A DNA stretch of 64,000 nt from a bacterium (lineage in GTDB: Bacteria > Electryoneota > Electryoneia > Electryoneales > Electryoneaceae). The notes below the pieces were generated by a model that was not told where the DNA came from, did not search any database, and worked only from the letters and a program-made list of their open reading frames with translations. The translations under genes and the position numbers were made by a program. The stretch covers positions 2,677,586 to 2,741,585 of the forward strand of contig OY769902.1 of NCBI GenBank assembly GCA_963669175.1. The letters are read 5' to 3'. Positions 14,039-62,793 of this stretch are shown piece after piece; the first letter of the stretch is position 1; each line of letters starts with the position of its first letter.

Positions 14039-16753
14039 TTACCCCAGGTCGGCCAGGTGCGCTTCCAGTTTCTTGACCTTGGCTTCGAAGTCAGCCAGTT
14101 TGTCACGTTCGTGCTGAACCACATCAGCCGGGGCGTTGTTCACGAATTTCTCGTTCTTCAGTTTCCCGGTGATGCCTTTCAGCAGGCCCTTCAATTTGCC
14201 GATTTCCTTTTCGACACGAGCTTTTTCCGCGTCAAGGTCGATCAGGCCCGCGAGGGGGACATACAGCTCACGTCCCTCGACAACCGTGGTCGCGGACTGA
14301 GAAGGTTTCGAATCGGTAACTTCCGGCCCTTCGCCCTGGAGTTTTGCCAACCTGCTGATCATCTGCCATTCACGTTCGATCAGGGCCAGTCTCGGCTCAC
14401 CATTATTCACGGCAATACGAGCGTCCTTGGAAGGCGGCACCTGCAATTCACCGCGTACGTTCCGTACCGCGCTGATCAGCTCCTGCACATAGCCGAATTC
14501 TTCCACAGCGACTCGGTCGGTTCCGGACTCATCAAATACCGGATAAGCAGCTACTGCCACCGATTCGCTGCGATCTTCCGGCCAGTTCACACCTTCCACC
14601 TGTACCAGCAGGCTATAGATCTCTTCCGTGATATAGGGCATGAAAGGATGAAGCAGACGGACAATTTTATCCATCATGCCATAGGCGAAACGCAGCGTAG
14701 CGTCGCCCTGTTCGGCATCGGGGGAATCCTGGGCAATACGTGGCTTGATTGCTTCTATGTACCAGTCACAGAAATCGTTCCAGGTGAACCGGTAGATCGC
14801 CAGCAGCGCTTCATTCAGTTTGTATTTCTTCAAATATTTCCGAACATCATCAGCAGTCTGATTAAAGCGTCCTTCGATCCATTTATCCACGAGCTGCGGC
14901 TGGAACTCAGCGAATTTCTCCGGATTCCGGAAATTGTAGGTCGCCAGGAAACGGAACGAATTCCACAGCTTGTTGGCGAAGTTACGGCCCATCTCAAAGC
15001 GGGTCGGGTCGAGGTTAATGTCCTGACCTTCTGTGGTCAGCACGACCAGGCTGTAACGGACAGCATCGGCGCCGTACTGGTCAATCATTTCCAGAGGATC
15101 AATGCCGTTACCCAGGGATTTGGACATCCAGCGGCCCTGCTTATCCTTGATCATACCGGTGATGTACACGGTGTCGTATGGGATCTGGCCGGTGAAATGC
15201 AGGTCAGCCATGATCATCCGCGCGATCCAGAAGAAGATGATGTCGTAGCCGCTGACCAGTACGTTGGTCGGGTGATAGAAGTCCAGCTCCTTGGTCTTGT
15301 CCGGCCAGCCCAGGGTAGAGAAGGGCCACAACCAGCTCGAGAACCAGGTATCCAGCACGTCCTCATCCTGACGGATACGTTCGCTGCCGCACTTTTCGCA
15401 TTTGGTTGGATCTTCACGGTTGACCGTTACATGGTCACAATCCGCGCAATACCATGCCGGGATACGGTGACCCCACCAGAGCTGACGGCTGATGCACCAG
15501 TCCCGGATATTTTCCAACCACTGGTAGTAGACCTTCTCCCAGCGTGGTGGAACAAACTTGATCTCGCCGTTACGGACCACATCCAGGGCCGGATCGGCGA
15601 GTGGTTTCATCTTCAGGAACCACTGGGTTGACAGATAAGGCTCAATCGGCACCTTGCTACGGTTGCAATAGCCGACCGCGTGCATATGCTTCTCGATTTT
15701 GACCAGCAAGCCCGCTTCCTCGAGGTCTTTAACGATAGCGTCACGCGCTTCGAAACGGTCCATCCCGATGTATTTATCCGGCGCTGGCGCACAGATCTTT
15801 GCCGATGTATCCAGGATGATCGGCATGGGCAGGTTGTGGCGTTTGCCCACTTCGAAGTCATTGGGATCATGCGCCGGGGTAACCTTCACACATCCGGTCC
15901 CGAATTCACGGTCCACATAATCATCTTCAATTACGGGAATGGTGCGTCCGGTCAGGGGTAATTGCACTTCCTTACCCTTGAGATGAGTGTAGCGTTCATC
16001 TTCCGGATGAATCATTACCGCGGTGTCGCCCAGCATCGTTTCCGGACGTGTGGTAGCGACAACAACCCCTTCGCTGCCGTCAACACCGGGATAACGGATG
16101 TGCCAGAGATGGCCTTCTTCGTCCTTGTGATCCACCTCTTCATCGCTGATCGCCGATTGCAAGGCAGGGGACCAGTTCACGATATACGGACCACGATAAA
16201 CAAGGCCTTCTTCGTAGAGCTTAACGAACACTTCACGAACCGCCTTGGACAGGCCGTCATCGAGGGTGAAGCGTTCACGGCTCCAGTCCGCGGAGTCCCC
16301 AAGCGCCGCCTTCTGGCGGGTGATGGTGTCACGGTTACGCGCGACAACTTTCCAGACTTCTTCGACAAACTTTTCCCGTCCCAGTTCGGCGCGAGTCGGC
16401 ATGCCGTTCTTCTTCAGCTCTTTCTCGGTCACGGTCTGGGTGGCGATGCCGGCGTGATCCTTGCCTGCCTGCCAGTGAGATTCGAAGCCCATCATGCGAT
16501 GATAGCGAATCAAAGCGTCCTGGATAGAGTCCTGAAGGGCGTGCCCCATGTGCAATACGCCCGTCACATTTGGCGGCGGCATCATGATGCAATAGGATTT
16601 TTTGTCCGGATTCGGCTGTGTATCAAACAGGTGGTTTTCCTGCCACCATTCGGTCCACTTGGGCTCGACCTGCTTGGGGTCGTATAACTTCGGGATGTCC
16701 ACGGTTGTCTGCTCCAAATACTTCGGATTTACGGATTTCAGGTTTAAAAACAA
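14039..16753 (-). CDS. valS: Valine--tRNA ligase
   Basis: 904 aa. Class-I HIGH motif (PPPNVTGVLHMGHAL), KMSKSLGN, and a C-terminal coiled-coil tail. Confidence 0.95.
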   Translation of the reverse strand: MFLNLKSVNPKYLEQTTVDIPKLYDPKQVEPKWTEWWQENHLFDTQPNPDKKSYCIMMPPPNVTGVLHMGHALQDSIQDALIRYHRMMGFESHWQAGKDHAGIATQTVTEKELKKNGMPTRAELGREKFVEEVWKVVARNRDTITRQKAALGDSADWSRERFTLDDGLSKAVREVFVKLYEEGLVYRGPYIVNWSPALQSAISDEEVDHKDEEGHLWHIRYPGVDGSEGVVVATTRPETMLGDTAVMIHPEDERYTHLKGKEVQLPLTGRTIPVIEDDYVDREFGTGCVKVTPAHDPNDFEVGKRHNLPMPIILDTSAKICAPAPDKYIGMDRFEARDAIVKDLEEAGLLVKIEKHMHAVGYCNRSKVPIEPYLSTQWFLKMKPLADPALDVVRNGEIKFVPPRWEKVYYQWLENIRDWCISRQLWWGHRIPAWYCADCDHVTVNREDPTKCEKCGSERIRQDEDVLDTWFSSWLWPFSTLGWPDKTKELDFYHPTNVLVSGYDIIFFWIARMIMADLHFTGQIPYDTVYITGMIKDKQGRWMSKSLGNGIDPLEMIDQYGADAVRYSLVVLTTEGQDINLDPTRFEMGRNFANKLWNSFRFLATYNFRNPEKFAEFQPQLVDKWIEGRFNQTADDVRKYLKKYKLNEALLAIYRFTWNDFCDWYIEAIKPRIAQDSPDAEQGDATLRFAYGMMDKIVRLLHPFMPYITEEIYSLLVQVEGVNWPEDRSESVAVAAYPVFDESGTDRVAVEEFGYVQELISAVRNVRGELQVPPSKDARIAVNNGEPRLALIEREWQMISRLAKLQGEGPEVTDSKPSQSATTVVEGRELYVPLAGLIDLDAEKARVEKEIGKLKGLLKGITGKLKNEKFVNNAPADVVQHERDKLADFEAKVKKLEAHLADLG

Positions 16754-45410: not shown

Positions 45411-46631
45411 TTATGGATTATCGCGCCAGTTTGTCGGCAGCAATCCTTCTTCTTCAGCCAATCGGATAATGCGCACAGCACGCTTTACTACAGGCGGATC
45501 AATCATTTTACTGCCAAGACTGACCACGCCAAGTCCTTCCGCTTCCGCCTTTTCAAAGGCAATAGTGATTTTCTTCGCTTTTTCAATCTCATCGGCTGAA
45601 GGGGCAAAGCCTTCATGCACGACCTGGATCTGGCGTGGATGAATACAGCCTTTGCCTTCGAAACCGAGCGATTTCGCTTCGAGTACAGATTCGCGCAGGG
45701 CGTCCATATCGGATACATCTGAAAATACCGTATCAATCGGTTGGACACCGGCTGCACGAGCGCCGTTTAATACCTGGGCGCGTGCCCAGAAGCTTTCTGT
45801 TCCTGCATTGGTACGTTGTGCCCCGATATCGGCGGTATAGTCTTCAAGTCCGATTGCCAGGGATACGACAGTCTCATGCGCCGAAGCGATTTCATAGGCG
45901 AACCAGGCGCCTTTCGCAGATTCAATAATCGGCATCAGCCAGATCTGATAGTCCTTCTCTTCACGTTTCAGGATATCAGCAATGGCATCGGCAACTACCT
46001 GAACCTGCTGTGGTGATTCCACTTTTGGTAACAGGACAAGCTGCACACCGTGTGTTACGATCCAGTTAAGATCTTCGAGGCCACGTTCCCCCTGGTTGAT
46101 CCGCACCATACGTTCGCAATTCATGAAATCCAGGGCACGCAAGCCGTTACGCACCATCACCCGTGCGGCATCTTTTTCCGAAGGCGCTACCGAATCCTCG
46201 AGATCCAGGATCACACCATCTGGATTGTGCAAAGGAGCATTGAGCATGAACTTCGGGCTGTTACCCGGCAGGTAGAGACGGGATCTACGGTTCTGTTTCG
46301 GCAGGGAAGGGGCGGGTGTTGTAAACAGAACCGGCAGCCACGGGGTCATATTCTGATCCGGTAGCGCCCTGCGTATTGCCGTTTCAATACGTGCCATGAG
46401 GACAAAGGGCACTGCGCCCTGATCTTCAACCACGACATGGGCGTGTTCAATACCGAAATGTTTCAGGCCTGCTTCAACCAGTTCACGGTTCTGTTTGCCA
46501 TATTGCACATCTACTTTGCTTGTCAGATCCAAGGTAATGCCGCCCTGATCCTTTATCGTAATCTCAACCCAGGCGTCGGACCGGACACTGCTGCCACGCT
46601 GTCCTGCCTGGCCAATTCCTGCGCTCATCAT
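45411..46631 (-). CDS. Fusion protein: citrate-lyase acyl-carrier (CitD)-like N-terminal domain plus citrate-lyase beta / citryl-CoA-lyase (CitE, HpcH/HpaI aldolase family) domain
   Basis: The N-terminal 95 aa align with CitD (AG...S.....EI / ..DQGAVPFVLMARIETAI). The remainder (LYLPGNSPKFMLNAPLHNPDGVILDLEDSVAP..KD.AR...VRIN..E) is the CitE/HpcH-HpaI TIM-barrel with DLED and E..D metal ligands. Confidence 0.7.
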   Translation of the reverse strand: MMSAGIGQAGQRGSSVRSDAWVEITIKDQGGITLDLTSKVDVQYGKQNRELVEAGLKHFGIEHAHVVVEDQGAVPFVLMARIETAIRRALPDQNMTPWLPVLFTTPAPSLPKQNRRSRLYLPGNSPKFMLNAPLHNPDGVILDLEDSVAPSEKDAARVMVRNGLRALDFMNCERMVRINQGERGLEDLNWIVTHGVQLVLLPKVESPQQVQVVADAIADILKREEKDYQIWLMPIIESAKGAWFAYEIASAHETVVSLAIGLEDYTADIGAQRTNAGTESFWARAQVLNGARAAGVQPIDTVFSDVSDMDALRESVLEAKSLGFEGKGCIHPRQIQVVHEGFAPSADEIEKAKKITIAFEKAEAEGLGVVSLGSKMIDPPVVKRAVRIIRLAEEEGLLPTNWRDNP

Positions 46632-48052: not shown

Positions 48053-50638
48053 ATGAACTTGAACTCCATTGGTGAACGGATAAAAGAAGTCCCCCTCGAG
48101 GAGGAAATGAAGCATTCCTACCTCGATTACTCGATGTCAGTAATCGTGTCTCGAGCGCTCCCGGATGTACGCGACGGAATGAAACCGGTCCATCGCCGTA
48201 TTCTGTTCGGGATGCATGAAATGGGCATGCTTCACAACCGGGCTTATAAGAAATCCGCACGTATTGTCGGTGATGTCATGGGTAAGTATCACCCCCATGG
48301 CGACTCGGCGATTTATGATGCCGTTGTGCGTATGGCGCAGGATTTCAGCCTGCGCTACCCGTTGGTTGACGGCCAGGGGAACTTCGGCAGCATTGACGGT
48401 GACGGCGCAGCGGCCATGCGTTATACAGAAGCCCGTCTTGCCAAGATCGCTGAAGAAGCGCTTGAAGATATTGGCAAAGAGACTGTCGATTTCGTAAGCA
48501 ATTACGATGATAGTATGCAGGAACCTTCCGTACTGCCTTCCAAGCTGCCGAACCTGCTGATCAATGGTGTTGGCGGTATTGCTGTCGGCATGGCGACAAA
48601 CATTCCCCCGCATAACCTGGGGGAAGTGATTGACGCCTGTTGTCACCTGATTGACAATCCGGAATGTGAGATTGACGACCTGATGAGGTTTGTGGTCGCC
48701 CCGGATTTCCCGACAGGCGGTATCATTTACGGTATCACAGGTGTACGGGAAGGGTATCGCACCGGTCGCGGACGTGTCATCATCCGTGCAAAAGCGCATA
48801 TCGAAGAAGACAAGCGCGGCAAAGAGAAAATTGTTGTCACGGAGATTCCATACCAGGTCAACAAAGCTGTCCTGGCCGAGAAAATTGCCGCCCTGGTCAA
48901 TGAAAAGAAGATCGAAGGCATCAGCGATATTCGTGACGAGTCGGACCGTGATGGTATCCGCCTGGTTATCGAGCTGAAGAAGGATGCTTACGGCGCGGTC
49001 ATACTGAACCAGTTGTACAAGATGACCAGCCTGCAATCCAGTTTCGGTATCAACATGATCGCGTTGGATCATGGTGCTCCGAAGCTGATGAACCTGAAGA
49101 CCATTCTTCAGAAGTTTGTCGAGCATCGTCATGAAGTGGTGCTGCGCCGGACGAATTTCGACCTGCGTAAAGCCAAAGAGCGTGAACATATTCTCGAAGG
49201 TTTGAAAATTGCGGTCGACAATATTGACCGTGTCATTCAGATTATTCGACAATCCAGTGGTCCAGAGACAGCGCGCATTGCGTTAATGGAAGAATTTGCT
49301 CTTTCAGATCTCCAGGCCAAGGCGATTCTGGACATGCGTCTGGCCAAACTGACCGGACTGGAAATTCAGAAACTGGAAGAAGAGCTGAAAGCCATTCGTG
49401 AATTGATCTCAGAGTTGGAACGGATTCTGGCATCACGTGATTTGCGGATGGAAATCATCAAAGATGAGCTGAAGGATCTGGAAGAACGCTACGGCGATGA
49501 GCGTCGCACGGAAGTCGTGAAGCATTACGAAGAATTCACCGTGGAAGACATGATCGCCGAAGAAGATATGGTCGTAACCATCAGCCATGCCGGTTACATC
49601 AAACGTCAGCCTGTGACCAGCTATCGTAAGCAGGGACGGGGAGGACGTGGCAAGACAGGCGCTACGATCAAAGATGAAGATTTCATCGAGCACCTGCTGG
49701 TGGCCAGTACTCACGAGTACATGCTGTTCTTCACGGACAAGGGCCAGATACACTGGTTGAAGGTGTACGACATTCCGCAGTTGGGACGATTGAGCAAGGG
49801 CAAAGCGTTGGTAAACCTGCTCGAGCTTGGTCCTGACCAGAAACTTGCGGCGTTCGTGTCGGTGAAAGAGTTTGTTGAGGGGCAGTATATCCTGTTGTGT
49901 TCACGGCAGGGCATTGTCAAGAAGACAGAGCTGACCGCTTACTCCAACCCGCGTCGTGGTGGCATTATCGCCATGAATATTCGTGACGACGACGAGTTGC
50001 TGGGCGCTTCCATCACGGACGGTGATTGCGAGGTTATCCTCGGTACCAGTGGTGGCAAGGCGGTTCGTTTCCGTGAAACCGATGTGCGTGCCATGGGGCG
50101 TACAGCGGCTGGTGTTATCGGTGTGAACCTGCCAAAGGGCCAGGAAGTGGTAGGCATGGTCGTCGTCAGGCGCGCCGGTACACTCCTGGTAGTCACGGAT
50201 AGAGGCTTCGGCAAGCGTTCCGATATCGCGGATTATCGCTTGACCAAACGTGGCGCTGGCGGTGTGCTGACATTGAAGACTTCTCCGAAGGTTGGCAACA
50301 TGATGTCAATTATGGAGGTGGTCGATGATGATGACCTGATGATTATCACCCAGAAGGGCGTGATGATCAGGTTGTCGATGAAGGATGTCCGAGTCATTGG
50401 TCGTGCGACGCAGGGTGTAAGGTTGATCCGCTTGGATGAAAACGACCAGATATCCTCGATTGCGCGTGTCATGAAGCAGGATGATTCGAACAAGAAACTG
50501 GATGAAAACGATAACGACGATATCCTCGACACCATCGAAGAGCCGTTGGAAGAAGATGGCGAGAATCAGGATGAGGGCGAGGATTCAGGGCCGGAAGAGG
50601 AAGAAGATGCCGGTCCGGAGGAGGACGAGAACTCCTAA
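48053..50638 (+). CDS. gyrA: DNA gyrase subunit A
   Basis: Active-site region ...[10 protein letters not shown]... Conserved N-terminus ...[29 protein letters not shown]. GyrA-box [13 protein letters not shown] in the C-terminal beta-pinwheel. Acidic C-terminal tail. Confidence 0.9.
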
Positions 50639-51332: not shown

Positions 51333-51553
51333 GCTGAGTTACGATTCCGAGAGTATTCGATTCCCCTGTGTCAAAGCAGGGGAATTGTTGTTCTGGGGGA
51401 AATGATTGGAACATGTCAGTAGTAAATGGGAGTGTCAAGAGGGGTTTAATTGCACGTATGTCGAGCAGCATCCAGATTAAAATCGAGGGAAAAAAGACAT
51501 CATACAAGACTTTGGGATTGAACAGTAAACCGGTTTCGAGCGCAAGTGTCGTC

Positions 51554-53281
51554 ATGAACCTTCAACGGTCTATACTTCTCCCCATTCTGTTTTTGATCCT
51601 TTCCGGCTGCCTGCATGCCCGGCCGGCGCGTGAGCTACGCCTGAAACGTATCGATGTCAATGCCGATGTAGCAGTATCACAAAGCGAAGTTGAAGACTAT
51701 TGCGGACTTAAAGCAGGGAACATGTATACACCGGATGAACTTGAGCTTGCTAAAGATTCTCTATTTACCGGTTTGAATGCCGCTGGCTGGTTCCTCGCTG
51801 AAATAACTGATTATGAAATACAAATAGCGGAAGATGTATCCGAGGCAACCCTGCACATCCTGCTTGACCCCGGTCCACCTGCGATTGTTGATACAGTCAT
51901 TCTTTCCGGCCCACTGGGAGGACGTGGCAGTGAAATTCAGTCACGGTTCCGCACGAAGCAGGGAAGAAGGTTTAATCCTGTGGTTTGGGCAGCGGATATG
52001 GAAAGAGCGGTTACCTGGCTGGAGAACCGTGGCTTTCCCTTTGCCAAGGCAGAGACGGCAAGATTAACGCCTGAATTCTCTGGTGATTCCATCCTGGTCA
52101 CTGCAGAAATGAGAATAACTCCCGGCCTTGCAGTCACCATTGATGAGCTGGAGGTTGCAGGATTAACGCGCACCAAACAAAAGGTAGCGCGGAGGATTCT
52201 TTCGATCAGACCGGGGCGCCTGTACAATCCTTCCCGGGCAGAACGCGCTAAACGAAGATTGCTCCGTACCGGGTGGTTTTCAGAAGTGCAGACGGCGGAG
52301 ATATTTCGTAACCAGGAAGGCCGGTTCGGCCTGGTCTACAAAGCCCAGGAACAGCCTACCAGCAGCGTTTCAGGTGCGTTGGGCTATGCGCCCCAGGGGG
52401 AGGATACAAAGGGTGTGACGGGGCAGATTGACGCATCCTTTGGAAACCTTTTCGGAACAGGAAGGCGATTGGATTTCAACTGGCAACGTGTCAGCGATGA
52501 CGAACGCTCGTTTGCTGTATTGTATCGTGAACCTTATCTCTTCGGAGCGCCGCTGAACCTGGATATTCAGCTTTCGCAGGAGAATATCGATTCAGTATAC
52601 CTCGCACGGGTTTACGGACTGGAAGCGACCTACATGGCTGGAATGACCTGGGAGGTGTTGGGCGGTATCAAACGTCGTGAGATTCATGCAGACAGTACGA
52701 TTGCCGACAATGACAGTCTGTCCTACAATTTGATCGGCTTTACCGCCGGCATTCGTATTGATACACGGGATCGCGCCACAAACCCGAGTATCGGCGGGTA
52801 CTACGAAGTTCGTACAGAGCGCTATCTCCCGACAGGCGAATCAAGCGACCAGTATCAGGATCAGTTTGTTAACAGCATTTCAGTACGACACAATTTGCCT
52901 GTTGGACGAGGTTTTATCATTCATGGTGGTGTATCCTACAAAGAGATCACTGTTGATAGCGGACAGCCTCCGTACGCCGAATGGGTGCGCATCGGGGGAG
53001 GGAGTACGGTTCGGGGATACCTGGAAAACTCGCTTACGGCTCCCCGTGCCGGATGGAGCACGATAGAACTTAGAAGGTTGCTTGGGCCGGAATCACGAGT
53101 GTTCCTGTTTGCCGATGCTGCTGTGTTGTCGCGGGTAGATGATACAAGCTGGAAAAGCTCATTGGGAGCCGGGTTGCAGCTTGATGCCGGGGGCGGAATC
53201 ATGAACATTGCCATCGCATTGCCTTCAGGACAGGGGCTAAACCAGTCAGTGGTCCATGCGTCAGTGTCAACGAGATTCTGA
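51554..53281 (+). CDS. Omp85-family outer-membrane protein (BamA/TamA-like; POTRA plus bacterial-surface-antigen beta-barrel)
   Basis: Lipoprotein-like signal MNLQRSILLPILFLILSGC, POTRA-like segments, and a C-terminal beta-barrel ending ...VVHASVSTRF (terminal Phe). Start moved to Met at 51554 because the upstream part of the track ORF is Cys/Gly-rich and lacks a signal peptide. Confidence 0.65.
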   Translation: MNLQRSILLPILFLILSGCLHARPARELRLKRIDVNADVAVSQSEVEDYCGLKAGNMYTPDELELAKDSLFTGLNAAGWFLAEITDYEIQIAEDVSEATLHILLDPGPPAIVDTVILSGPLGGRGSEIQSRFRTKQGRRFNPVVWAADMERAVTWLENRGFPFAKAETARLTPEFSGDSILVTAEMRITPGLAVTIDELEVAGLTRTKQKVARRILSIRPGRLYNPSRAERAKRRLLRTGWFSEVQTAEIFRNQEGRFGLVYKAQEQPTSSVSGALGYAPQGEDTKGVTGQIDASFGNLFGTGRRLDFNWQRVSDDERSFAVLYREPYLFGAPLNLDIQLSQENIDSVYLARVYGLEATYMAGMTWEVLGGIKRREIHADSTIADNDSLSYNLIGFTAGIRIDTRDRATNPSIGGYYEVRTERYLPTGESSDQYQDQFVNSISVRHNLPVGRGFIIHGGVSYKEITVDSGQPPYAEWVRIGGGSTVRGYLENSLTAPRAGWSTIELRRLLGPESRVFLFADAAVLSRVDDTSWKSSLGAGLQLDAGGGIMNIAIALPSGQGLNQSVVHASVSTRF

Positions 53282-53461
53282 AATTGCAAACGTCTCTCTT
53301 CTGCCAGTCGTGAGTGATATTACAAACATCCTTATTGCATGCCTTTCTCGTATATTGCACTTTGTCTTTACGCTCTGCTCTCCCAGGGGAGCAAATAAAC
53401 AGCGGGATCAATACAGTTCTTTTGCGGGTATAACCTGACAGGTTAAACCTACGAGTACAGC

Positions 53462-56400
53462 ATGATGATGCTACAGTTGCGGCAACACTTTTCGATTCGT
53501 TCAACCAGCACAAGACCACTCCCTCTATTTGTTTTTCTTGTACTTGCCATGTTGTTTGTACTGCCTTTGGGAGCATTCGGCCAATATTTCGGTCAGAACA
53601 AAGTCAACTATAATATGCACGAATGGTACTATCTAAGGACTGAACATTTCGATATTTACCACCCGAAAGACGAGTATGAACTGGCCAAGTTCACTGCATG
53701 GACGGCTGAACGCTCGCTTCAGGATATTCAGGAATCCTTTAACTGGCAACTGACATCACGGGTAATATTCATTGTTTACCCGAATCATAACGAGTTTCAG
53801 CAGACAAACGTAGGCGGCTTTATCGGTGAATCCACAGGTGGTTTTACCGAGTTTATGAAGAATCGCGTCGTTATTCCATTTGAAGGGAATTACGAGAAGT
53901 TCCGGCATGTGATCCACCATGAGTTGACTCATGCTGTCATGCTGCGAATGTTGTATGGAGAAGGTTTGCAGAGCATCATCACCGGCATCAGCCGGATGCC
54001 GATCCCGTTATGGTTCATTGAAGGTCTGGCTGAATATGAATCAAACTATGGCTGGGATACAGAATCAGACATGTATATACGTGATGCCATCATCAATGAT
54101 TACCTGATGCCGATTGAACATTTGCAAGGGTATTTCATTTATAAGGGCGGACAATCTGTATTGTGGTATATCGCACAACGATATGGCGACGAGAAAATTG
54201 GAGAGCTTCTGCATAAAATTCGTTCAAGCCGTGATCCACTCCGAGCATTCAAGAATACACTCGGGGTTGATTTGGAGGAATTGAGCAAACGCTGGCAACG
54301 TCATCTGAAACGCGAAATCTGGCCGACATCTGCCGAATATGAAAATCCGGATGATTTTGCCGAACGTATAACAGATCACGAAGAATGGTACAATTTTGTG
54401 AATACGTCACCGGCTTTATCACCCAAGGGTGACAAACTGGTATTTCTCTCCGACAAGGATGATTATTACAGTATTTACCTGATGTCAACGGTGACAGGTA
54501 ACATTGAGCGCAGGCTGGTTCGTGGTTCAAAGTTTGACCTGTTTGAAAAGCTGTTATGGATACGTCCCTGGATTGACTGGTCGCCGGATGGACGTCAAAT
54601 CGTATTTGTTGCGGAATCCGGCGCAGAAGATGCACTCTATACAATAAACGTAAAATCCGGGAAGGTGACTGAAGAAATCAAACTGGGCATGGATGGAGTG
54701 TATAGTCCGAAATGGTCACCGGATGGAAAGAAGATTCTCTTTGCCGGGTTTACCGGTGGTCAGAGTGATATCTATACCTACGATCTGACCGACGGCACCA
54801 CGACGCAATTAACCGATGATATTTTCAGTGATTTTGATCCGGCCTGGTCGATGGATGGACAAAAAGTGTTGTTCATTTCAGATCGTCTTGAATTTGTGAC
54901 TCAGCCTGAAGACGGTTTTGAGATGTATAACCATGCCTATCATTACAGCAATGTGTACATGCTTGATGCTAAAAGCGGTGTAGTTGAACGTATCACTGAA
55001 GGCTTTTTCAATGACCGTACACCGTCGTTCACCCCTGCGCAGGATACCATCAGTTTCGTATCGGACCGGAACGGTATTCAGAATCTGTATTTGATGGACC
55101 TGAACACACGCGAATACTGGGCTGTGAGTGATATTCTTACCGGCATCACGCAACCAAGCTGGTCACGGGAGGGGACAGTTGCGTTTTCCTGTTTCTTCAA
55201 TGCCGGCTATGATGTATACCTGTACAAGAATCCGTTTGCTCCTGAAAGACGCAAAGATCTGAAGCCGACGGCCTACATGCACATGATGGCAGATCGTTAT
55301 CAGGAACGTACTGGTGATTCCCTGCGAGCAGATGTGTCCATGTCATTCCCGCTAGAATGGCTGCAAGTCGATCCTGCATTTCAGGGTGGTGATCCCAGTG
55401 TTGCCGATTCCATTGAAAACATCACGACTTTAAAAGTTCCGGTAGAATATTTCGATATTCTGGGACAAGTAGCAGGTGACAGTATAACCGTAGAAAACGA
55501 TGACGATTCTACCACCATCATCATCAAACGTCCAGAAAGAGTTGATCTGGAGAATGGCGTATTGGCCCTGAAGGATACGCTGGATGCTGATGTTATTCAG
55601 CGATTGGAAACCACGACCAGATACATAGTGACTGAAATTGATACTGCCACAGTATCTTTGAACGATCATGATTCCACGGACACCGGTGAAGAAATTACGG
55701 AGAATCGTGGCGCTGGCGGGGTGAGACTGGTGCCGGATAATCGTCCTGGTGAAGTGAAAGCCATGGAAAGTTCACCGTTTACACATTATGTCTTCCGTCC
55801 CTACTACGATGATAATAATGATGAGCCCGTTGACAGCCTGCAAGAGAAGGAAGAAGAAACCGGGCCCATGATGACGGAAGATGGAGAATTTGTTCAGAAT
55901 AAATATAAACTCAAATTCTCCCCCGATGTTGTCAATGCGACTGCCGGTTATGATACATACTTCGGTTTGCAGGGGATGGGGCAGATCATGTTCAGTGACG
56001 TGCTGGGCAACCACATCATGTACCTTGTAACTGACATGTATTACAGCTTCGAGAATTCCAACTTTGCTTTCTACTACTATTACCTGCCAAACCGTTGGGA
56101 TATCGGCGGCGGTGTTTTCCACAATGTCTATTTCTTCAACTATGGGGATATTCGCGACCGGAACTATGGTTTCTCCCTTGATGCGATCTATCCTTTTGAT
56201 AAATATAGACGTGTCGATTTCTCCATGTCGTATGTCAACATTGAACGCGATTTGTGGAACTGGGATCTTTACGACTACGAGCATACACAATCCCAGCATT
56301 TTATCCTTCCATCGATTGCCTATGTTTCAGATAATACCCTGTGGGGGTGGACCGGTCCGATGAACGGGCATCGTTATCGAGTCGGTTTCTCCTATAGTCC

Positions 56401-57031
56401 GAAACTGGCTGAGGATACCAAGTGGGGACTGGATTTTAAAACGATTTCCTTTGATGCACGAAAATACTGGCACCTTGGCCTGGATTACGTTCTCACGACA
56501 CGCATAGCCGGCGCTGCAAGCTACGGCCAGAATCCGCAACGGTTCTTCCTTGGTGGTGTGCCGAACTGGATCAACCGTCGGTTTGAGGGGGGGGATATCC
56601 GGGTAGACCTGAATGATGTCTATTTCTCGTCATTCGCAACCCCACTCAGAGGCGCTGATTATTATGAAAAGGATGGGAACCGTTACCTGTTGCTTAACCA
56701 GGAATTCCGCTTCCCGCTTATTCGGCAAATGCTGTTTGGTTGGCCACTTCCATTATTCTTCTACAACATTCGAGGCGCGGTTTTCTTTGACGCCGGAGCG
56801 GCATGGTATGGCCCCGGCTCGGCGCCCGATGGACAACCGGAAGGGTTCAAGATGTTCCACAAACCTTATCCCTATCAAGGTGATTATTTCCGGGATGTTG
56901 CCGTAGGGTATGGTTGGGGGGCACGTGTCGATCTTGGGATATTCCTGCTAAAGTGGGATATGGCTTGGGAAAATACCTGGCATTCAGTATCGAAACCCAA
57001 GTTCTACGTTTCCCTGGGAACAGACCTGTAA
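53462..57031 (+). CDS. 1189-aa outer-membrane protein: Peptidase_MA_2-like HExxH domain plus TolB-like PD40 beta-propeller repeats plus C-terminal Omp85 (Bac_surface_Ag) beta-barrel
   Basis: Signal peptide. HHELTHAVM ... PLWFIEGLAEYES (HExxH plus a downstream Glu). Multiple PD40 repeats (SPKWSPDGKKILFAG, DPAWSMDGQKVLFISDR, DWSPDGRQIVFV). The C-terminal 350 aa carry BamA-like blocks (YGQNPQRFFLGG...LRGADYY...LLNQEFRFPL...GAVFFDAGAAWYG). Confidence 0.6.
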   Translation: MMMLQLRQHFSIRSTSTRPLPLFVFLVLAMLFVLPLGAFGQYFGQNKVNYNMHEWYYLRTEHFDIYHPKDEYELAKFTAWTAERSLQDIQESFNWQLTSRVIFIVYPNHNEFQQTNVGGFIGESTGGFTEFMKNRVVIPFEGNYEKFRHVIHHELTHAVMLRMLYGEGLQSIITGISRMPIPLWFIEGLAEYESNYGWDTESDMYIRDAIINDYLMPIEHLQGYFIYKGGQSVLWYIAQRYGDEKIGELLHKIRSSRDPLRAFKNTLGVDLEELSKRWQRHLKREIWPTSAEYENPDDFAERITDHEEWYNFVNTSPALSPKGDKLVFLSDKDDYYSIYLMSTVTGNIERRLVRGSKFDLFEKLLWIRPWIDWSPDGRQIVFVAESGAEDALYTINVKSGKVTEEIKLGMDGVYSPKWSPDGKKILFAGFTGGQSDIYTYDLTDGTTTQLTDDIFSDFDPAWSMDGQKVLFISDRLEFVTQPEDGFEMYNHAYHYSNVYMLDAKSGVVERITEGFFNDRTPSFTPAQDTISFVSDRNGIQNLYLMDLNTREYWAVSDILTGITQPSWSREGTVAFSCFFNAGYDVYLYKNPFAPERRKDLKPTAYMHMMADRYQERTGDSLRADVSMSFPLEWLQVDPAFQGGDPSVADSIENITTLKVPVEYFDILGQVAGDSITVENDDDSTTIIIKRPERVDLENGVLALKDTLDADVIQRLETTTRYIVTEIDTATVSLNDHDSTDTGEEITENRGAGGVRLVPDNRPGEVKAMESSPFTHYVFRPYYDDNNDEPVDSLQEKEEETGPMMTEDGEFVQNKYKLKFSPDVVNATAGYDTYFGLQGMGQIMFSDVLGNHIMYLVTDMYYSFENSNFAFYYYYLPNRWDIGGGVFHNVYFFNYGDIRDRNYGFSLDAIYPFDKYRRVDFSMSYVNIERDLWNWDLYDYEHTQSQHFILPSIAYVSDNTLWGWTGPMNGHRYRVGFSYSPKLAEDTKWGLDFKTISFDARKYWHLGLDYVLTTRIAGAASYGQNPQRFFLGGVPNWINRRFEGGDIRVDLNDVYFSSFATPLRGADYYEKDGNRYLLLNQEFRFPLIRQMLFGWPLPLFFYNIRGAVFFDAGAAWYGPGSAPDGQPEGFKMFHKPYPYQGDYFRDVAVGYGWGARVDLGIFLLKWDMAWENTWHSVSKPKFYVSLGTDL

Positions 57032-57242
57032 AAACTGAATTCGAGCATGCAATGCGGCCGATTCATGTGAGAATCGGCCTTTTTTATCTCTTCGTCTACA
57101 ATTGTACAATGAATGTCTTCCATATCTCCTGTCATACTTGTATTTTTAATGTAAAATCTTTCACAAGCTTGCACCAAATAAAATTTAAGTGTACACTAAT
57201 GGATCAGGGAAGTGGACAACCTATTCAACAAGGAGATAGACC

Positions 57243-58988
57243 ATGAAGATGGGAAAGTGGTTAACACTTTTGTTGGCATTTTTGATGCTTTTTACACTGG
57301 GCACATTCGTCGGGTGTGAGGATTCGGAAGATGACGATGATGACGATGGCAGCAATTCAGTCCTGGTTGGCTCCTGGTATCGTTATTCGTTTATGGCAGG
57401 ATCCACAAATGTCTTTTTTCAAGCCAAGACAGTAATTAATTCCAATGGCTCAGGAACTACATATACTTATGATCTTGTAGATGGTGACGTCATACCATCT
57501 ACTGATTATTTCACATGGACGGACAATGATAATGTAATGACCATCTATAATGAGGACGGGGATGTTGAATTCTCCGGCAGCTTTACTTCCACTTCAGGCG
57601 GCACGGTCATTACGACTACGTATCAGGAAGATGGCATTTCCATGGCTGAAACGTCTGTTCGGGAATGTACTGGTCATGAAGCGGGAATGGTCGGAACCTG
57701 GCAGGGAGTGACGTACACCCTCAACGGACAGGCAGAGTCGATTGCCAACTGGGAATTCACGTTTAACGAGGATGGCACCTACACATTTACAGGATGGGGC
57801 GAAACGGATGCTGGCGAGTGGGCAACCGATGGCGCCTATTTCCTGGGTGTAAGCGATGATGATCCGATGGGACGTGGCTATGGGCTTTACCAGTACACCC
57901 TTTCCAATAATGATAGCACAGTAACCCTGACAGGATATGAGGGTGAGATAGATGAAGATTCCGGCTATCCCGAATCCTATGCTGTTCAACTTGTTTTTAC
58001 AAAGGGAACCGGCGGTGGTGTTGTCGTGGATACGGATCTGGTCGGAACCTGGCATACATACTCATATGATCTGTATGATGGAAGCACGAACACGCGCCTT
58101 AACATACCCACAAAGGAAGTCCTTAGTGATGATGGCACGGGTGTTCGCGTGACTATTGATGACGGGAATCTGGAAACTGAGAATTTCACCTGGACCGCGA
58201 ATAATAATTCCATTACGGTTTATGATTCAGATGGGAATGTAGAATTCTCCGGCACTTACCAGATCAGTAACAACGTCGTTACAACTTCCTTTGAAGATGA
58301 GTGGACAGACGGTGAAACGTACACGATTACCGTTACGAGTGTTAAGGAAACTGGTGATATCGACGTAAATGTACCGGGTGATTATGTACCGAGCACCTAC
58401 AAAATCGATGATGTGCTATACTACTATGAAGAATACGTTGTGTTTAATGATGACGGGACCGGTTCTTCGACCTATATCGATGGTGATACCGGCGTTAGTC
58501 AGGATGTGACCTGGTCCACCAACGGTTTGTACATGATTCTGTATACGGAAGACCTGCAAGGTTTGGCGTATGTGCTTCAATACGACTGGTATACGGATGG
58601 CTTGCTGGACATTAACTACTATTATGAGGATGCACGGGTAACGTCGCAGTACGTTGAGAACACTGGCGAACTCGATACTAGACTGGTAGGATCATGGTAT
58701 CTTACAGCTCGCACGATCAATAATGAGGATGATCCGGATATGCCGGATGATGCAACTTTTATACTGGATGCAGATGGAAATGCAACCGGTGAATGGGATG
58801 GCGAAACCTACGCCTTCACCATGACGACCAACGAAGGCTGGATGCTGCAGTTCCCAACCGAGTATGATGTGACTGTTGGTACAGCATACAGCTATACCGT
58901 CAGTGGGGACGCCTTGGTCGTGCACTACAGAGAAGAAGACGGCGCTGATGGATCGTATATTGTCGAAAGTTGGGCCAGGCTGCAATAG
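57243..58988 (+). CDS. Repeat lipoprotein (4 internal modules of about 140 aa, each starting LVG[ST]W[YH]); paralog 1
   Basis: Lipobox LGTFVGC followed by an acidic DSEDDDDDDG linker. Modules begin LVGSWYRY, MVGTWQGV, LVGTWHTY, LVGSWYLT, in a lipocalin-like/DUF-type repeat organisation. Confidence 0.55.
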   Translation: MKMGKWLTLLLAFLMLFTLGTFVGCEDSEDDDDDDGSNSVLVGSWYRYSFMAGSTNVFFQAKTVINSNGSGTTYTYDLVDGDVIPSTDYFTWTDNDNVMTIYNEDGDVEFSGSFTSTSGGTVITTTYQEDGISMAETSVRECTGHEAGMVGTWQGVTYTLNGQAESIANWEFTFNEDGTYTFTGWGETDAGEWATDGAYFLGVSDDDPMGRGYGLYQYTLSNNDSTVTLTGYEGEIDEDSGYPESYAVQLVFTKGTGGGVVVDTDLVGTWHTYSYDLYDGSTNTRLNIPTKEVLSDDGTGVRVTIDDGNLETENFTWTANNNSITVYDSDGNVEFSGTYQISNNVVTTSFEDEWTDGETYTITVTSVKETGDIDVNVPGDYVPSTYKIDDVLYYYEEYVVFNDDGTGSSTYIDGDTGVSQDVTWSTNGLYMILYTEDLQGLAYVLQYDWYTDGLLDINYYYEDARVTSQYVENTGELDTRLVGSWYLTARTINNEDDPDMPDDATFILDADGNATGEWDGETYAFTMTTNEGWMLQFPTEYDVTVGTAYSYTVSGDALVVHYREEDGADGSYIVESWARLQ

Positions 58989-59310
58989 CAGGAATATCGT
59001 CAACATTTCAACCGGATCTCGGCAACGGGATCCGGTTTTTTCATGAGTCCGGACCTGTTCATTTTTATACAGTTGTAAGAAATGGACCGATAGAAGAATT
59101 GAGCCGGATTAGAATGGGCATCAGCACAACGACGTATCGAGTAGATAAACTCGATATGCTTTTTACTGGCTGCTTCCGATATTGTGCAGCACGGTCTCCA
59201 TTTACGGAATGATGATTATACAGTATTGTTTCTGTAGCAATTGTGTTGCAATCGGGGTAAGATAGCGGTAAAATATACTACATTACGTGAGACTAGTCAG
59301 GGAAATAGAC

Positions 59311-61041
59311 ATGAAGACGACGTGTTTCGCAGGACTGCTGGCGCTGTTAATGATATTCGCAATGTGTGCATTCATCGGATGCGATAATTCAGAGCAAAAG
59401 GAAGAAAACGCTTCCATTTTGATTGGCACCTGGTATCGTTATTCGCTGAAGGCAGGACCGACCGACCTTTTTGTACCTTCCAAAGTTGTGATGCATGTAG
59501 ATGGAACCGGCATCAATTACACAACAGAAGTACAGGACGGGTTGCCTGTTGACGCTACCAACGAATTTACCTGGGCAGATGATAATGGTACCATGAGTAT
59601 CTATGGGACCAATGGAGAACTGCAATATTCTGGCCCCTATTCTTTAAACGAGGATAGTACTTTAATTACAACAATTTATGAGGTAGACAGTTTGGATGTA
59701 ACGGAAGTGTCCGTAAAATACTATATCGAGCATGATGAGGCATTGGTGGGGGACTGGTACGGTCTTTCCATTTCACGTGATGGGCAGGAAAATCCAATTC
59801 ATGGTTGGGAATTTTCTTTTTCCATCGGCGGTAGCTACTCCTTTGCCGGATGGGGAACTGAGGATACCGGTATATGGGGAACCAATGGTACCCATTTCAT
59901 GACGATAAGCAACTCAGATATCAAGGGACGGGATTACTGTCTGTATCGCTATTATCTATCCAACCATGACAGCCTTCTGACGTTTTACGGGTTTGAAGCG
60001 GATTGGGATACCGATAGCGAAGATCCGACTGTTTACCAGGTGGCGATGGTTTTAACCAAGGGAGCGGGCACGGAGATTGAAATTGATCCGAACCTGGTAG
60101 GCGTCTGGTATACGTTGCATTATGACCTGTTTGACGGTAACACTACAAAGAGATTAAATATCCCAACCAGGCAGATGATGTACAATGATGGCACCGGGAT
60201 TCGGGAATATTATGAAGGAGGGACTCTGATTTCGGAAATGTTTGCCTGGGAAGCAGCCAACAACGCCTTGACAGAATATGATACCGATGGACAGATCAGT
60301 TATTCTGCGCCGTATTACATTGTCGATAATTCGTTTTCCCTGACTTATAATCGGGAGTGGATGGATGGTGAAGACTACACCATGACAATTCTGAGTATTC
60401 GAGAATCTGAAGAGACTGATGCTTCGCTTGCCGGAGAGTATCTACCGCTTGCTAAAACAGTCAATGGAGTTATTATAGACAGCCAGGAAATAACCCTTAT
60501 TCATGAGGATGGATCCGGTTCTTCCGCAAGATTGGAAGGTGGCGCAGTAACAACCGAAGAGTTTACCTGGACCACTGGTGGGGACTATCTGTTCCTGTAC
60601 AGGGAAGAGATGAACGGTCTTGCATGCGTTATGGGATATAATTTTGACGATACTGATGTACTCGACTTCTTCTATTATGATGATATTGATCATATAAACC
60701 TGCGCTATATCAGGAATACAGGATCATTTGATTCCAGCCTTATCGGTGAATGGAGCCTGACTAACCGGTTGTTGAATGGCGATGAAGATCCTGACGTGCC
60801 TGATAGTGCAACACTTTCTATTTATGGAGACGCAACCGGTTCAAAACTTTGGGGCAGTGCAGAAACTGCATTTTCCCTGAATACGAATTTGCACTGGTTG
60901 CTTCAATACGTTGAAATCGATGGTGTTCTTGTGGGCAGAGTTTGCGATTACACGGTGAATGAGAACATCCTGGTTCTGGATTATCTGCAGGAAGATGGTA
61001 CGGCCGGTACAGAAGTGAGTGAGACTTGGACCAGGCAGTGA
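59311..61041 (+). CDS. Repeat lipoprotein, paralog 2
   Basis: Lipobox CAFIGC (start at Met 59311). Same four-module organisation (LIGTWYRY, LVGDWYGL, LVGVWYTL, LIGEWSLT). About 35-40 % identical to paralog 1. Confidence 0.55.
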   Translation: MKTTCFAGLLALLMIFAMCAFIGCDNSEQKEENASILIGTWYRYSLKAGPTDLFVPSKVVMHVDGTGINYTTEVQDGLPVDATNEFTWADDNGTMSIYGTNGELQYSGPYSLNEDSTLITTIYEVDSLDVTEVSVKYYIEHDEALVGDWYGLSISRDGQENPIHGWEFSFSIGGSYSFAGWGTEDTGIWGTNGTHFMTISNSDIKGRDYCLYRYYLSNHDSLLTFYGFEADWDTDSEDPTVYQVAMVLTKGAGTEIEIDPNLVGVWYTLHYDLFDGNTTKRLNIPTRQMMYNDGTGIREYYEGGTLISEMFAWEAANNALTEYDTDGQISYSAPYYIVDNSFSLTYNREWMDGEDYTMTILSIRESEETDASLAGEYLPLAKTVNGVIIDSQEITLIHEDGSGSSARLEGGAVTTEEFTWTTGGDYLFLYREEMNGLACVMGYNFDDTDVLDFFYYDDIDHINLRYIRNTGSFDSSLIGEWSLTNRLLNGDEDPDVPDSATLSIYGDATGSKLWGSAETAFSLNTNLHWLLQYVEIDGVLVGRVCDYTVNENILVLDYLQEDGTAGTEVSETWTRQ

Positions 61042-61433
61042 CAGATTTTTAAGTCAGGTGTCTGCATTTTAATCCCGACAGGGATTTTCGAACACAGCAC
61101 TGGGTCGTGCCGTCTTTTTGGCGACTACCTTGGGGGATGAGTCACGCCACATATTTACTCCGGTAGGAGTAACCTGACTATTATTAAGGGTATAAAGCAC
61201 GAGTGTTTAGGCAACCCGCTGCCGGGGTTGTGTAACGGGAGGGCGTTCAATTCCCACCGTGAGCGCCAAACAGACGGCGCTGGACGGTGGGCTAAAACAG
61301 GGAACCACTACCGTGGTTCTCCGATTTCGGCAATTTCTGCCCTTGTGATGATGTTGCTGATACTCCCTCGCCAAACGATTCTGGCACTTTTCAGCTCACT
61401 TCAGATCGAAACATCCTTTCCAACCATCGAAGA

Positions 61434-61465
61434 CGAAAAAAGGGGACAACCGAAGTTGTCCCCCT
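61434..61465 (-). terminator. Rho-independent terminator of gltA (minus strand)
   Basis: Minus-strand reading: GGGGACAACttcgGTTGTCCCCTTTTTTTCG. Confidence 0.7.
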
Positions 61466-61488
61466 GGAAGAAGCTGTTACTTTGTGTC

Positions 61489-62793
61489 TTACTTGCCGAA
61501 GGTATCCTTGATATACTTGGAGCCAATGGATTTCGGACGGGTAATGGCTGTGCCGACGGCACGGTTCCAGATGAGCTGGGACAACATACCCATGGAACGG
61601 GACACGCTGAACAGCACCGTGTAATACTGGAACTCACGCAAGCCGTAGTGATACAGCAGCGCGCCGGAACCGGCATCCACGTTCGGCCAGAAGTTCGCGA
61701 TCGGGTTCTTGCCCTCGGCGACGCGTTCTGCGCTGAAGGCCTCGAGGACTTTCGGGACCACGGTGAAGACACGGTCGACAGTCATGAAGACCGGATCGTC
61801 AGCCATCATCTTCTTACCGAAGATGTTGAAGCCGGTGAAGCGCGGGTCAGTGACACGCAGTACGGCGTGACCGTAACCCGGGACTACCTTGCCGCCACGC
61901 AGGGTGTCGAACGCGAACTTTTCGATGTCTTCTTCTGTCGGGGTGCCGCCGAAGATGTCCATCAGTTCGAGAATCCAGTTCAGGCATTCCTGGTTGGCGA
62001 GGCCGTGCAACGGACCGGCAAGACCGTTCAGACCGGCAGATACGGAATAATAGGGATCGGACAGGGCCGAGCCTACGGTATGGCAAGTGTTGGCGCTTAC
62101 ATTGCCACCTTCATGGTCGCAGTGGAAGTGCAGGTACAGACGCATCAGTTCCGCAAAGCCACCATCGGGATCCTTGAGGCCCAGCATGTTGGCGTAGTTG
62201 GCGCCCCAGTCGAGACCCGGGGTCCAGGGAATGATGTCACCCTTCTTGTAGCGGATACGATAGACACCGGCTGCAATGGACGGCAACTTGGCCAGAATCT
62301 GGAGTGAATCTTCAAGGGTCGGCTTCCAATACTCGGTCTTGGCAGCGCCCTTGTTGTACCATTCCACAAATGCAGATTCTTTCTGCATGACGAGAATGGC
62401 GGTGTCAAGCATGGCCATCGGGTGGCTGTCTTCCGGCATGGCATACAGCACATCCCAGACATAACCCGGCACTTCGGCACGCTTGTCGTATTCCCGCATC
62501 AGGTCGAGCTTCGCTGCTTCATCCGGCTTTTCACCGGTCAGCAACAGGTAAAATGTTTCTTCAGGCCATAAATCCATAATGTCCAGCAGGGGATAGCCCT
62601 GAATAATCAATCCCTTGTCAGGTTCCACCAGGCTGGTTTCACAAATCATGCCTTTTACACCACGCATGCCGCCATAAGCTTGTGCTACGGTGCAATCAGA
62701 CAATTTTTCCGATCCATAGTTCTTGATCATGTCGGCACGATTCTGACGCCACTGGGGGATGAGCTCTTCTAACTTACTGTACAGCTTGGACAT
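61489..62793 (-). CDS. gltA: Citrate synthase
   Basis: 434 aa. Citrate synthase signature GYGHAVLRVTDPR, plus the conserved His/Asp active-site region. Confidence 0.95.
   Translation of the reverse strand: MSKLYSKLEELIPQWRQNRADMIKNYGSEKLSDCTVAQAYGGMRGVKGMICETSLVEPDKGLIIQGYPLLDIMDLWPEETFYLLLTGEKPDEAAKLDLMREYDKRAEVPGYVWDVLYAMPEDSHPMAMLDTAILVMQKESAFVEWYNKGAAKTEYWKPTLEDSLQILAKLPSIAAGVYRIRYKKGDIIPWTPGLDWGANYANMLGLKDPDGGFAELMRLYLHFHCDHEGGNVSANTCHTVGSALSDPYYSVSAGLNGLAGPLHGLANQECLNWILELMDIFGGTPTEEDIEKFAFDTLRGGKVVPGYGHAVLRVTDPRFTGFNIFGKKMMADDPVFMTVDRVFTVVPKVLEAFSAERVAEGKNPIANFWPNVDAGSGALLYHYGLREFQYYTVLFSVSRSMGMLSQLIWNRAVGTAITRPKSIGSKYIKDTFGK

Follow-up and report, generated by a model that had tools for sequence, protein, structure and literature searches.

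The open reading frame (ORF) at positions 53462-57031 (forward strand) of a 64,000-nucleotide stretch of contig OY769902.1 (assembly GCA_963669175.1; the whole stretch is referred to here as the window) encodes a 1189-aa protein that is very probably a stand-alone member of the WD40-Omp85 subfamily of outer membrane proteins and not a part of a cargo-exporting system. The nearest named relative of the organism is Ca. Electryonea clarkiae, a member of the Fibrobacteres-Chlorobi-Bacteroidetes (FCB) group. A previous reading of the window from the letters alone (below, the sequence-only reading) had described four adjacent ORFs between 51368 and 61041, which encode an Omp85 protein with POTRA domains, the 1189-aa protein and two lipoproteins, and had likened the arrangement to a translocation unit. 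All four ORFs are indeed present on the same strand at those coordinates. The combination of propeller, protease and barrel in the 1189-aa protein is not new; it is that of a known subfamily, which can now be seen to be far larger than it appeared in 2014. Our best overall explanation, which we consider probable, is that this is an ordinary WD40-Omp85 protein, a periplasmic zinc peptidase anchored in the outer membrane, whose neighbours are not part of the same machine.

Domain architecture of the 1189-aa protein

The protein begins with a signal peptide (residues 1-40; 53462-53581) with a predicted cleavage site after GAFG, read from the sequence, and continues with a Peptidase_MA_2 (gluzincin) domain at residues ~41-300 (53582-54361), identified by Pfam and by its conserved zinc-site motif, and a six-bladed TolB/PD40-type beta-propeller at residues ~301-595 (54362-55246). 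A linker at residues ~596-811 (55247-55894), in which short helices are followed by an acidic disordered stretch, is modelled at a predicted local distance difference test score (pLDDT) below 50, and a 16-strand Omp85-type beta-barrel with a PLRGxDYY motif in loop 6 occupies residues 812-1189 (55895-57031). Pfam profiles match Peptidase_MA_2 at residues 82-283 (E 6.9e-11), PD40 (7.9e-18) and DPPIV_N, and the best NCBIfam propeller match is to TolB (8.7e-41). An AlphaFold2 model of the whole protein has a mean pLDDT of 74 and a predicted template modelling (TM) score of 0.72. Among aligned family members the mean majority frequency is 0.70 in the peptidase, 0.62 in the propeller, 0.60 in the barrel and 0.18 in the linker, so that the peptidase is the most conserved domain of the family. 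The acidic disordered part of the linker (residues 616-800; 55307-55861) is about 185 aa long with a net charge of -26, and the distance between propeller and barrel is 140-230 aa in the clade of this protein versus 67-97 aa in other members.

The sequence-only reading had recognised an Omp85 barrel without POTRA domains, preceded by an HExxH peptidase and a PD40 propeller, and had named profile searches and a structure prediction of the full protein as ways to check this. The architecture was borne out by Pfam and NCBIfam profiles, AlphaFold2 and Foldseek, with one qualification: Peptidase_MA_2 and PD40 match the protein itself, but the Pfam Omp85 model (PF01103) gives no match to it at E<=0.1, yet matches 15 of 40 aligned homologs (best E 2.1e-18). 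The protein's own barrel matches are weak ones to the NCBIfam models TamL (8.1e-9, residues 995-1169) and BamA (6.5e-6, residues 825-1116). The structure prediction contains 16 confident strands at residues 812-1186, and Foldseek aligns this barrel with those of E. coli BamA (E 4.8e-11, TM 0.58). The homolog matches to PF01103, the 16 modelled strands and the BamA fold matches together make the C-terminal Omp85 barrel secure. In loop 6, which lies between model strands 11 and 12, R1063 and G1064 are invariant and Y1067 is conserved; a C-terminal, BamA-like barrel of 16 strands and a loop-6 motif of the (V/I)RG(F/Y) type are the features of the Omp85 superfamily, and both are present here. POTRA domains are lacking: the Pfam POTRA model (PF07244) matches none of the 40 members at E<=0.01, and the AlphaFold2 model has no beta-alpha-alpha-beta-beta (POTRA-like) unit between propeller and barrel. 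The WD40-Omp85 subfamily is in fact marked by this lack of POTRA domains.

The HExxH motif lies at residues 153-157 (53918-53932) within HHELTH and is followed by WFIEGLAEYE. H153, E154, H157, E187 and E191 do not vary among 40 sequences down to 44% identity; the segment WFIEGLAEYE, with E187 and E191, carries the putative third zinc ligand. Peptidase_MA_2 matches all 40 members tested, and the weaker matches (M9, M61 and DUF2268) all belong to the gluzincin clan. An HExxH motif and a downstream glutamate are what characterises gluzincins (clan MA(E)), and by sequence the protein has both. About 25 residues before HExxH is an invariant GGFTE strand. We take the W-F-x-E-G-L-A-x-Y context to resemble the third-ligand motif of M1 aminopeptidases, and the GGFTE strand presumably corresponds in position to the GxMEN of those enzymes. 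A second highly conserved element, QxFG(K/Q)NKVxY, is found at the predicted mature N-terminus (residues 41-50; 53582-53611), where F43, G44, N46 and V48 are invariant in the 40 sequences; this segment is modelled at pLDDT <50. By analogy with the lid of PlpD (an Omp85 protein of the patatin-like type), which pairs with strand 1 of the barrel, this segment may act as a docking strand.

The WD40-Omp85 subfamily

Heinz and Lithgow (PMC4104836) described in 2014 a "WD40-Omp85" cluster as one subfamily of the Omp85/TpsB proteins and likened it to a fusion of BamA and BamB. About 62 sequences were then known, and their Pfam architectures consisted of PF01103 with PF07676 repeats, and PF00930. For members of this cluster, Table S3 of that paper reports fold matches to BamA/TamA (4k3b, 4c00) and TolB (2w8b, 2ivz), and it includes a "best aminopeptidase hit" column with 1z5h, 4kxd, 3qnf, 4fgm and 4ar1 at scores of 98.7-99.4. 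The subfamily was cited again in 2024 (PMC11358297). The 1189-aa protein has the same parts in the same arrangement, namely an N-terminal PD40/TolB-like propeller and an Omp85 barrel with no POTRA, and an aminopeptidase-like (gluzincin) domain upstream of the propeller. Nothing essential differs between it and the published subfamily apart from the much longer acidic linker of its clade. The assignment was made by architecture and by the fold matches described in PMC4104836.

The family is a large one. Among the candidates examined in a protein search, more than 4,700 homologs scored at E<=1e-5; their sources are KSB1, Calditrichota, Zixibacteria, LCP-89 and unclassified bacteria, and they are annotated, for instance, as "BamA/TamA family outer membrane protein", "PD40 domain-containing protein" or "Tol biopolymer transport system component". 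Those from Calditrichota and KSB1 share the architecture of the 1189-aa protein. With the barrel alone as query, 1,564 cluster representatives (50% identity) were found, of which 962 have E<=1e-10, and the full-length representatives are ~980-1180 aa long with the barrel at the C-terminus. The sequence-only reading had called the protease/propeller module uncharacterised. As far as experiments in the searched literature are concerned this stands, but the architecture as such was already catalogued in 2014. The same reading had named a common annotated family with unrelated neighbours in other genomes as the finding that would speak against it, and a family of thousands of members, with no shared neighbours (below), is what we found.

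The protein is distinct from better known envelope proteins with which it shares parts. Against BamA, which carries POTRA domains, it scores 24.8 bits with TIGR03303 (cut-off 297), and against TamL 34.5 bits (cut-off 400). It lacks the N-terminal TolA-binding domain of TolB, its propeller being fused to a peptidase and a barrel instead, and the TolB model TIGR02800 gives 140 bits against a cut-off of 343. Neither BamB (an 8-bladed lipoprotein) nor BepA (an M48 peptidase with tetratricopeptide repeats, TPR) is homologous to its domains. It resembles PlpD and the other patatin-like Omp85 proteins (formerly called type Vd) in that an Omp85 barrel is joined to an N-terminal enzyme domain other than a POTRA (PMC11116518); PlpD, however, has a patatin lipase and one POTRA and forms homodimers, whereas the 1189-aa protein has a zinc peptidase and a propeller and no POTRA.

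Neighbouring genes

The gene immediately upstream encodes, as the sequence-only reading had stated, an Omp85 protein with POTRA domains; in the ORF 51368-53281 Pfam matches three stretches to POTRA (E 3.7e-23) and the barrel to Omp85 (3.3e-15). Its translation probably starts at ATG 51557 rather than at GTG 51368, since the latter lies inside the terminator-like hairpin that follows the rex gene (51358-51387, 12-bp stem) and the alignment with homologs begins well downstream. The resulting 574-aa protein (51557-53281) has a clean signal peptide with the lipobox LSGC, a lipobox that only about half of its orthologs have, and the 622 aa of the public gene call are probably too many as well. Among NCBIfam models, BamA (TIGR03303) gives the best match to this protein, but the score of 145.8 bits is below the cut-off (297.15). 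We considered this gene as the organism's BamA and rejected the idea, as the protein has three POTRA domains where BamA has five and scores below that cut-off. TamA and TamL are similar to it in their three POTRA domains, the barrel size (TamA) and the lipobox (TamL), but it scores far below the respective cut-offs (TamA, 16.2 bits versus 625; TamL, 24 bits versus 400) and has no TamB (DUF490) gene nearby. The ShlB model gives 17.4 bits, under its cut-off of 22.7.

A scan for hairpins followed by T runs showed that strong intrinsic terminators separate rex, the 1189-aa gene and the two lipoprotein genes from one another. One lies directly 3' of the 1189-aa gene (57056-57079, a 9-bp GC-rich stem and then TTTTTT) and another after the first lipoprotein gene (59010-59037, a 12-bp stem and then a T run). 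The 180-nt gap between the two Omp85 genes has no terminator, and neither does the corresponding gap in the relative L001, so these two genes may be co-transcribed in this clade. A promoter scan performed no better than on shuffled sequence (17 sites versus 16.1 expected), and Rfam and tRNA scans of the window gave no matches. The sequence-only reading had left room for a connection with rex; we rejected this gene as part of the unit, given its separate terminator and its absence from L001.

The two lipoproteins, of 581 aa (57243-58988; lipobox Cys25 followed by an acidic tether) and 584 aa (59287-61041; likely start ATG 59311, lipobox FIGC), lie downstream of and outside the Omp85 unit. They are paralogs, as had been proposed, with 39% identity over their full length (E 4e-160) and corresponding module boundaries, but each contains five tandem modules of 8-9 beta-strands and not four; it is four of the five that open with the LVGxW-type motif. 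In the first lipoprotein the modules span residues 43-140, 151-254, 268-368, 379-473 and 483-579 (AlphaFold2 pLDDT 83.5). Both proteins match Pfam Lipocalin_4 (PF13648; 6.5e-12), and Foldseek aligns the model with the Bacteroides lipocalin 4gzv (TM 0.53, normalised to the target). The modules are thus of the type found in Lipocalin_4 lipoproteins of the Bacteroidota and similar small lipocalin-like barrels, here with five in tandem on one lipoprotein. Among 5.8 billion proteins only 5 homologs were found, none of which adjoins a WD40-Omp85 gene; the closest, 51% identical, is in the metagenome-assembled genome (MAG) of L001 (GCA_964648415), but its contig is a different one and the 5.5 kb upstream of it hold unrelated genes. 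These are lineage-specific lipocalin-repeat lipoproteins.

The sequence-only reading had put these genes together as a two-partner or TAM-like (translocation and assembly module) translocon, in which the POTRA-bearing and the protease-bearing Omp85 proteins would export or assemble the two lipocalin-repeat lipoproteins as dedicated cargo. Its attraction is that the four genes are adjacent and on the same strand, that no terminator intervenes between the two Omp85 genes and that this adjacency is kept in L001 and L007; the lipoprotein model is also weakly similar in Foldseek to surface lipoproteins of the TbpB type (E 3e-6, but TM only 0.15). The comparative evidence, however, speaks against it. 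The strong terminators after the 1189-aa gene and after the first lipoprotein gene divide the supposed unit, and 5 lipoprotein homologs stand against thousands of WD40-Omp85 proteins. No lipoprotein homolog is found beside a WD40-Omp85 gene, even where one is present in the MAG of L001, and none occurs in 10 related loci. Orthologs of the upstream Omp85 have other neighbours: the two genes adjoin one another here and only in the two closest relatives, L001 (74% identity) and L007 (59%), and the more distant orthologs (36-41% identity) are followed by genes for aconitase, UDP-glucose dehydrogenase or a type IX secretion system (T9SS) cargo protein, and never by a WD40-Omp85 gene. Among the flanking genes and large ORFs scanned there is no TamB (DUF490), no gene for a cargo protein with a two-partner secretion (TPS) domain is nearby (the downstream proteins carry Lipocalin_4 and not TPS domains), and no Slam was seen. 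The locus therefore has the features of neither a TAM nor a two-partner (TpsB/TpsA) system, nor of a conserved operon, and the comparative data largely refute the translocon model, which we now regard as very improbable. An export route like that of TbpB and Slam was likewise rejected, given the TM of ~0.15 and the lack of a visible Slam (DUF560). The upstream three-POTRA Omp85 is at most a clade-specific, co-transcribed neighbour.

A broader survey of gene neighbourhoods, which the sequence-only reading had suggested as a check on co-occurrence with the lipoproteins, showed these to be rare and unlinked and the neighbours to differ among genomes. A scan of genome contigs with a single protein query gave eight close related loci, and in none of them is a lipoprotein, Rex or GyrA homolog near the WD40-Omp85 homolog. 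The annotated neighbours of more distant members (L009, L010 and L011) are unrelated and differ from one locus to the next, with glycosyltransferases and RecG in one, MTHFR in another and mlaEF in a third. All-against-all clustering of the flanking ORFs indicated that local synteny is particular to each sub-clade and that no partner is universal. The WD40-Omp85 homolog in L005, L006, L008 and L009 is directly preceded by two conserved glycosyltransferase genes (Glyco_tranf_2_5 and Glyco_trans_1_2), and in the Calditrichota-type locus L011 (11112-12664) mlaE and mlaF, genes of an outer membrane lipid-asymmetry ABC transporter, follow the homolog after a 3-nt gap. The genes for RecG and valyl-tRNA synthetase are ~40 kb from the 1189-aa gene in the window (10024-12150 and 14039-16753, both on the reverse strand), and in relatives with 55% identity (L008; L009, 11750-19599) they lie directly downstream of the WD40-Omp85 homolog; this difference in position shows that the synteny has been rearranged.

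Some other features of the window may be recorded. The C-terminus of GyrA (50455-50638) is an acidic, Asp/Glu-rich tail of ~60 aa. A 359-aa ORF at 61228-62307 (forward strand) is antisense to the citrate synthase gene (61489-62793, reverse strand) and is almost certainly a shadow ORF. In the ORF at 45411-46631 (reverse strand) an acyl-carrier-protein-like domain (PF06857, which Pfam describes as malonate decarboxylase delta subunit MdcD) is joined to an HpcH/HpaI aldolase / citrate lyase domain; an acyl-carrier subunit and the lyase subunit seem to have been fused here. Two large beta-propeller / LVIVD-repeat proteins (34116-37076, forward strand; 6557-8839, reverse strand) have T9SS C-terminal sorting domains (Por_Secre_tail), from which it follows that the organism has a type IX secretion system, in keeping with its affiliation to the FCB group.

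Possible function of the WD40-Omp85 protein

We favour, tentatively, the following mechanism for the 1189-aa protein. It would leave the cytoplasm by way of Sec, and the BamA-like barrel of 16 strands at its C-terminus would be inserted into the outer membrane. The N-terminal module, a gluzincin zinc peptidase that appears catalytically intact by its motif and is predicted to pack on the six-bladed TolB-like propeller, would stay in the periplasm, tethered by the flexible acidic linker. The propeller is probably a substrate-binding or gating platform, and the POTRA-less barrel probably serves mainly as an anchor or sensor and not as an insertase. Such a protein would probably act at the outer membrane's inner face, where it would cleave unfolded polypeptides of the envelope, or peptides. 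In Omp85 barrels both ends of the chain lie on the periplasmic side, and the N-termini emerge there. In addition, only one Omp85 protein with an enzyme domain other than a POTRA, PlpD, has been tested experimentally, and its enzyme domain stays in the periplasm, which departs from the older type Vd model (PMC11116518). It is this precedent and the periplasmic N-termini of Omp85 proteins that lead us to favour a periplasmic peptidase.

Several observations weigh against this reading. Fold searches did not identify a nearest structural relative of the peptidase domain, and the Pfam Omp85 model, as stated above, misses the protein itself. The adjacency conserved in L001 and L007, with no intervening terminator, leaves room for a possible clade-specific partnership with the upstream Omp85, and the long disordered linker may just as well be a tether of the passenger type. 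Finally, we infer the topology, the peptidase activity and the class of substrate alike, since the searched literature contains no experimental study of any WD40-Omp85 member.

A second explanation is self-export in the manner of type V secretion, in which the barrel, or the machinery for beta-barrel assembly (BAM) while the barrel is being assembled, would move the peptidase and propeller to the cell surface to give a tethered extracellular protease for nutrient acquisition. The order of signal peptide, enzyme, linker and Omp85 barrel is the one in the original type Vd model, an extended acidic and disordered segment separates the passenger-like module from the barrel, and the organism has other secreted or surface proteins with T9SS tails. 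Yet PlpD, the type Vd prototype, keeps its enzyme domain periplasmic, and translocation of folded globular domains has been argued to be unfavourable (PMC11116518). The would-be passenger is a compact alpha-helical peptidase plus a propeller and not a beta-helix, and most family members have a linker of just 67-97 aa. We consider self-export unlikely.

Somewhat less likely still, in our estimation, is that the protein is a factor in outer membrane protein biogenesis or quality control, a fused analogue of BamA, BamB and a BepA-like protease that would engage at its barrel seam, and break down, beta-barrel substrates that are stalled or misfolded; the adjacent three-POTRA Omp85 might contribute in this clade. 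A BamA-like barrel with the loop-6 RG motif, a propeller that recalls the BamB and TolB scaffolds (PMC4104836) and an invariant HExxH protease motif would all suit such a role, as would an invariant, strand-like N-terminal motif that may dock on the barrel edge like the PlpD lid, and in three genomes the gene adjoins that of a POTRA-bearing Omp85. The idea is nevertheless purely analogical: the protein has no POTRA domains to receive substrates, a link to BAM genes is not conserved, and BepA, an M48 peptidase with TPR, is homologous no further than the clan. One can imagine a more specific version for the whole subfamily, in which the barrel seam would capture stalled or misfolded beta-barrel substrates or lipoproteins and the propeller would hand them to the zinc site, with the QxFGKNKVxY strand as a regulatory lid on the barrel edge as in PlpD and, in this clade, a hetero-pair in which the co-transcribed three-POTRA Omp85 would supply the missing POTRA receptor; we rate this version as improbable.

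The locus no longer points to a new translocon-cargo system, and this false lead can be removed. What the window adds is one more member of the WD40-Omp85 family; the clade to which it belongs stands out by the unusual length of its acidic linker. The subfamily is very widespread, with about a thousand clusters at 50% identity in the FCB group and in other phyla. Its zinc-protease motif is strictly conserved, and the searched literature contains no experimental characterisation of the subfamily. As PlpD shows that Omp85 barrels can anchor periplasmic enzymes, the WD40-Omp85 proteins are a reasonable target for the study of Omp85 scaffolds put to uses other than insertion.

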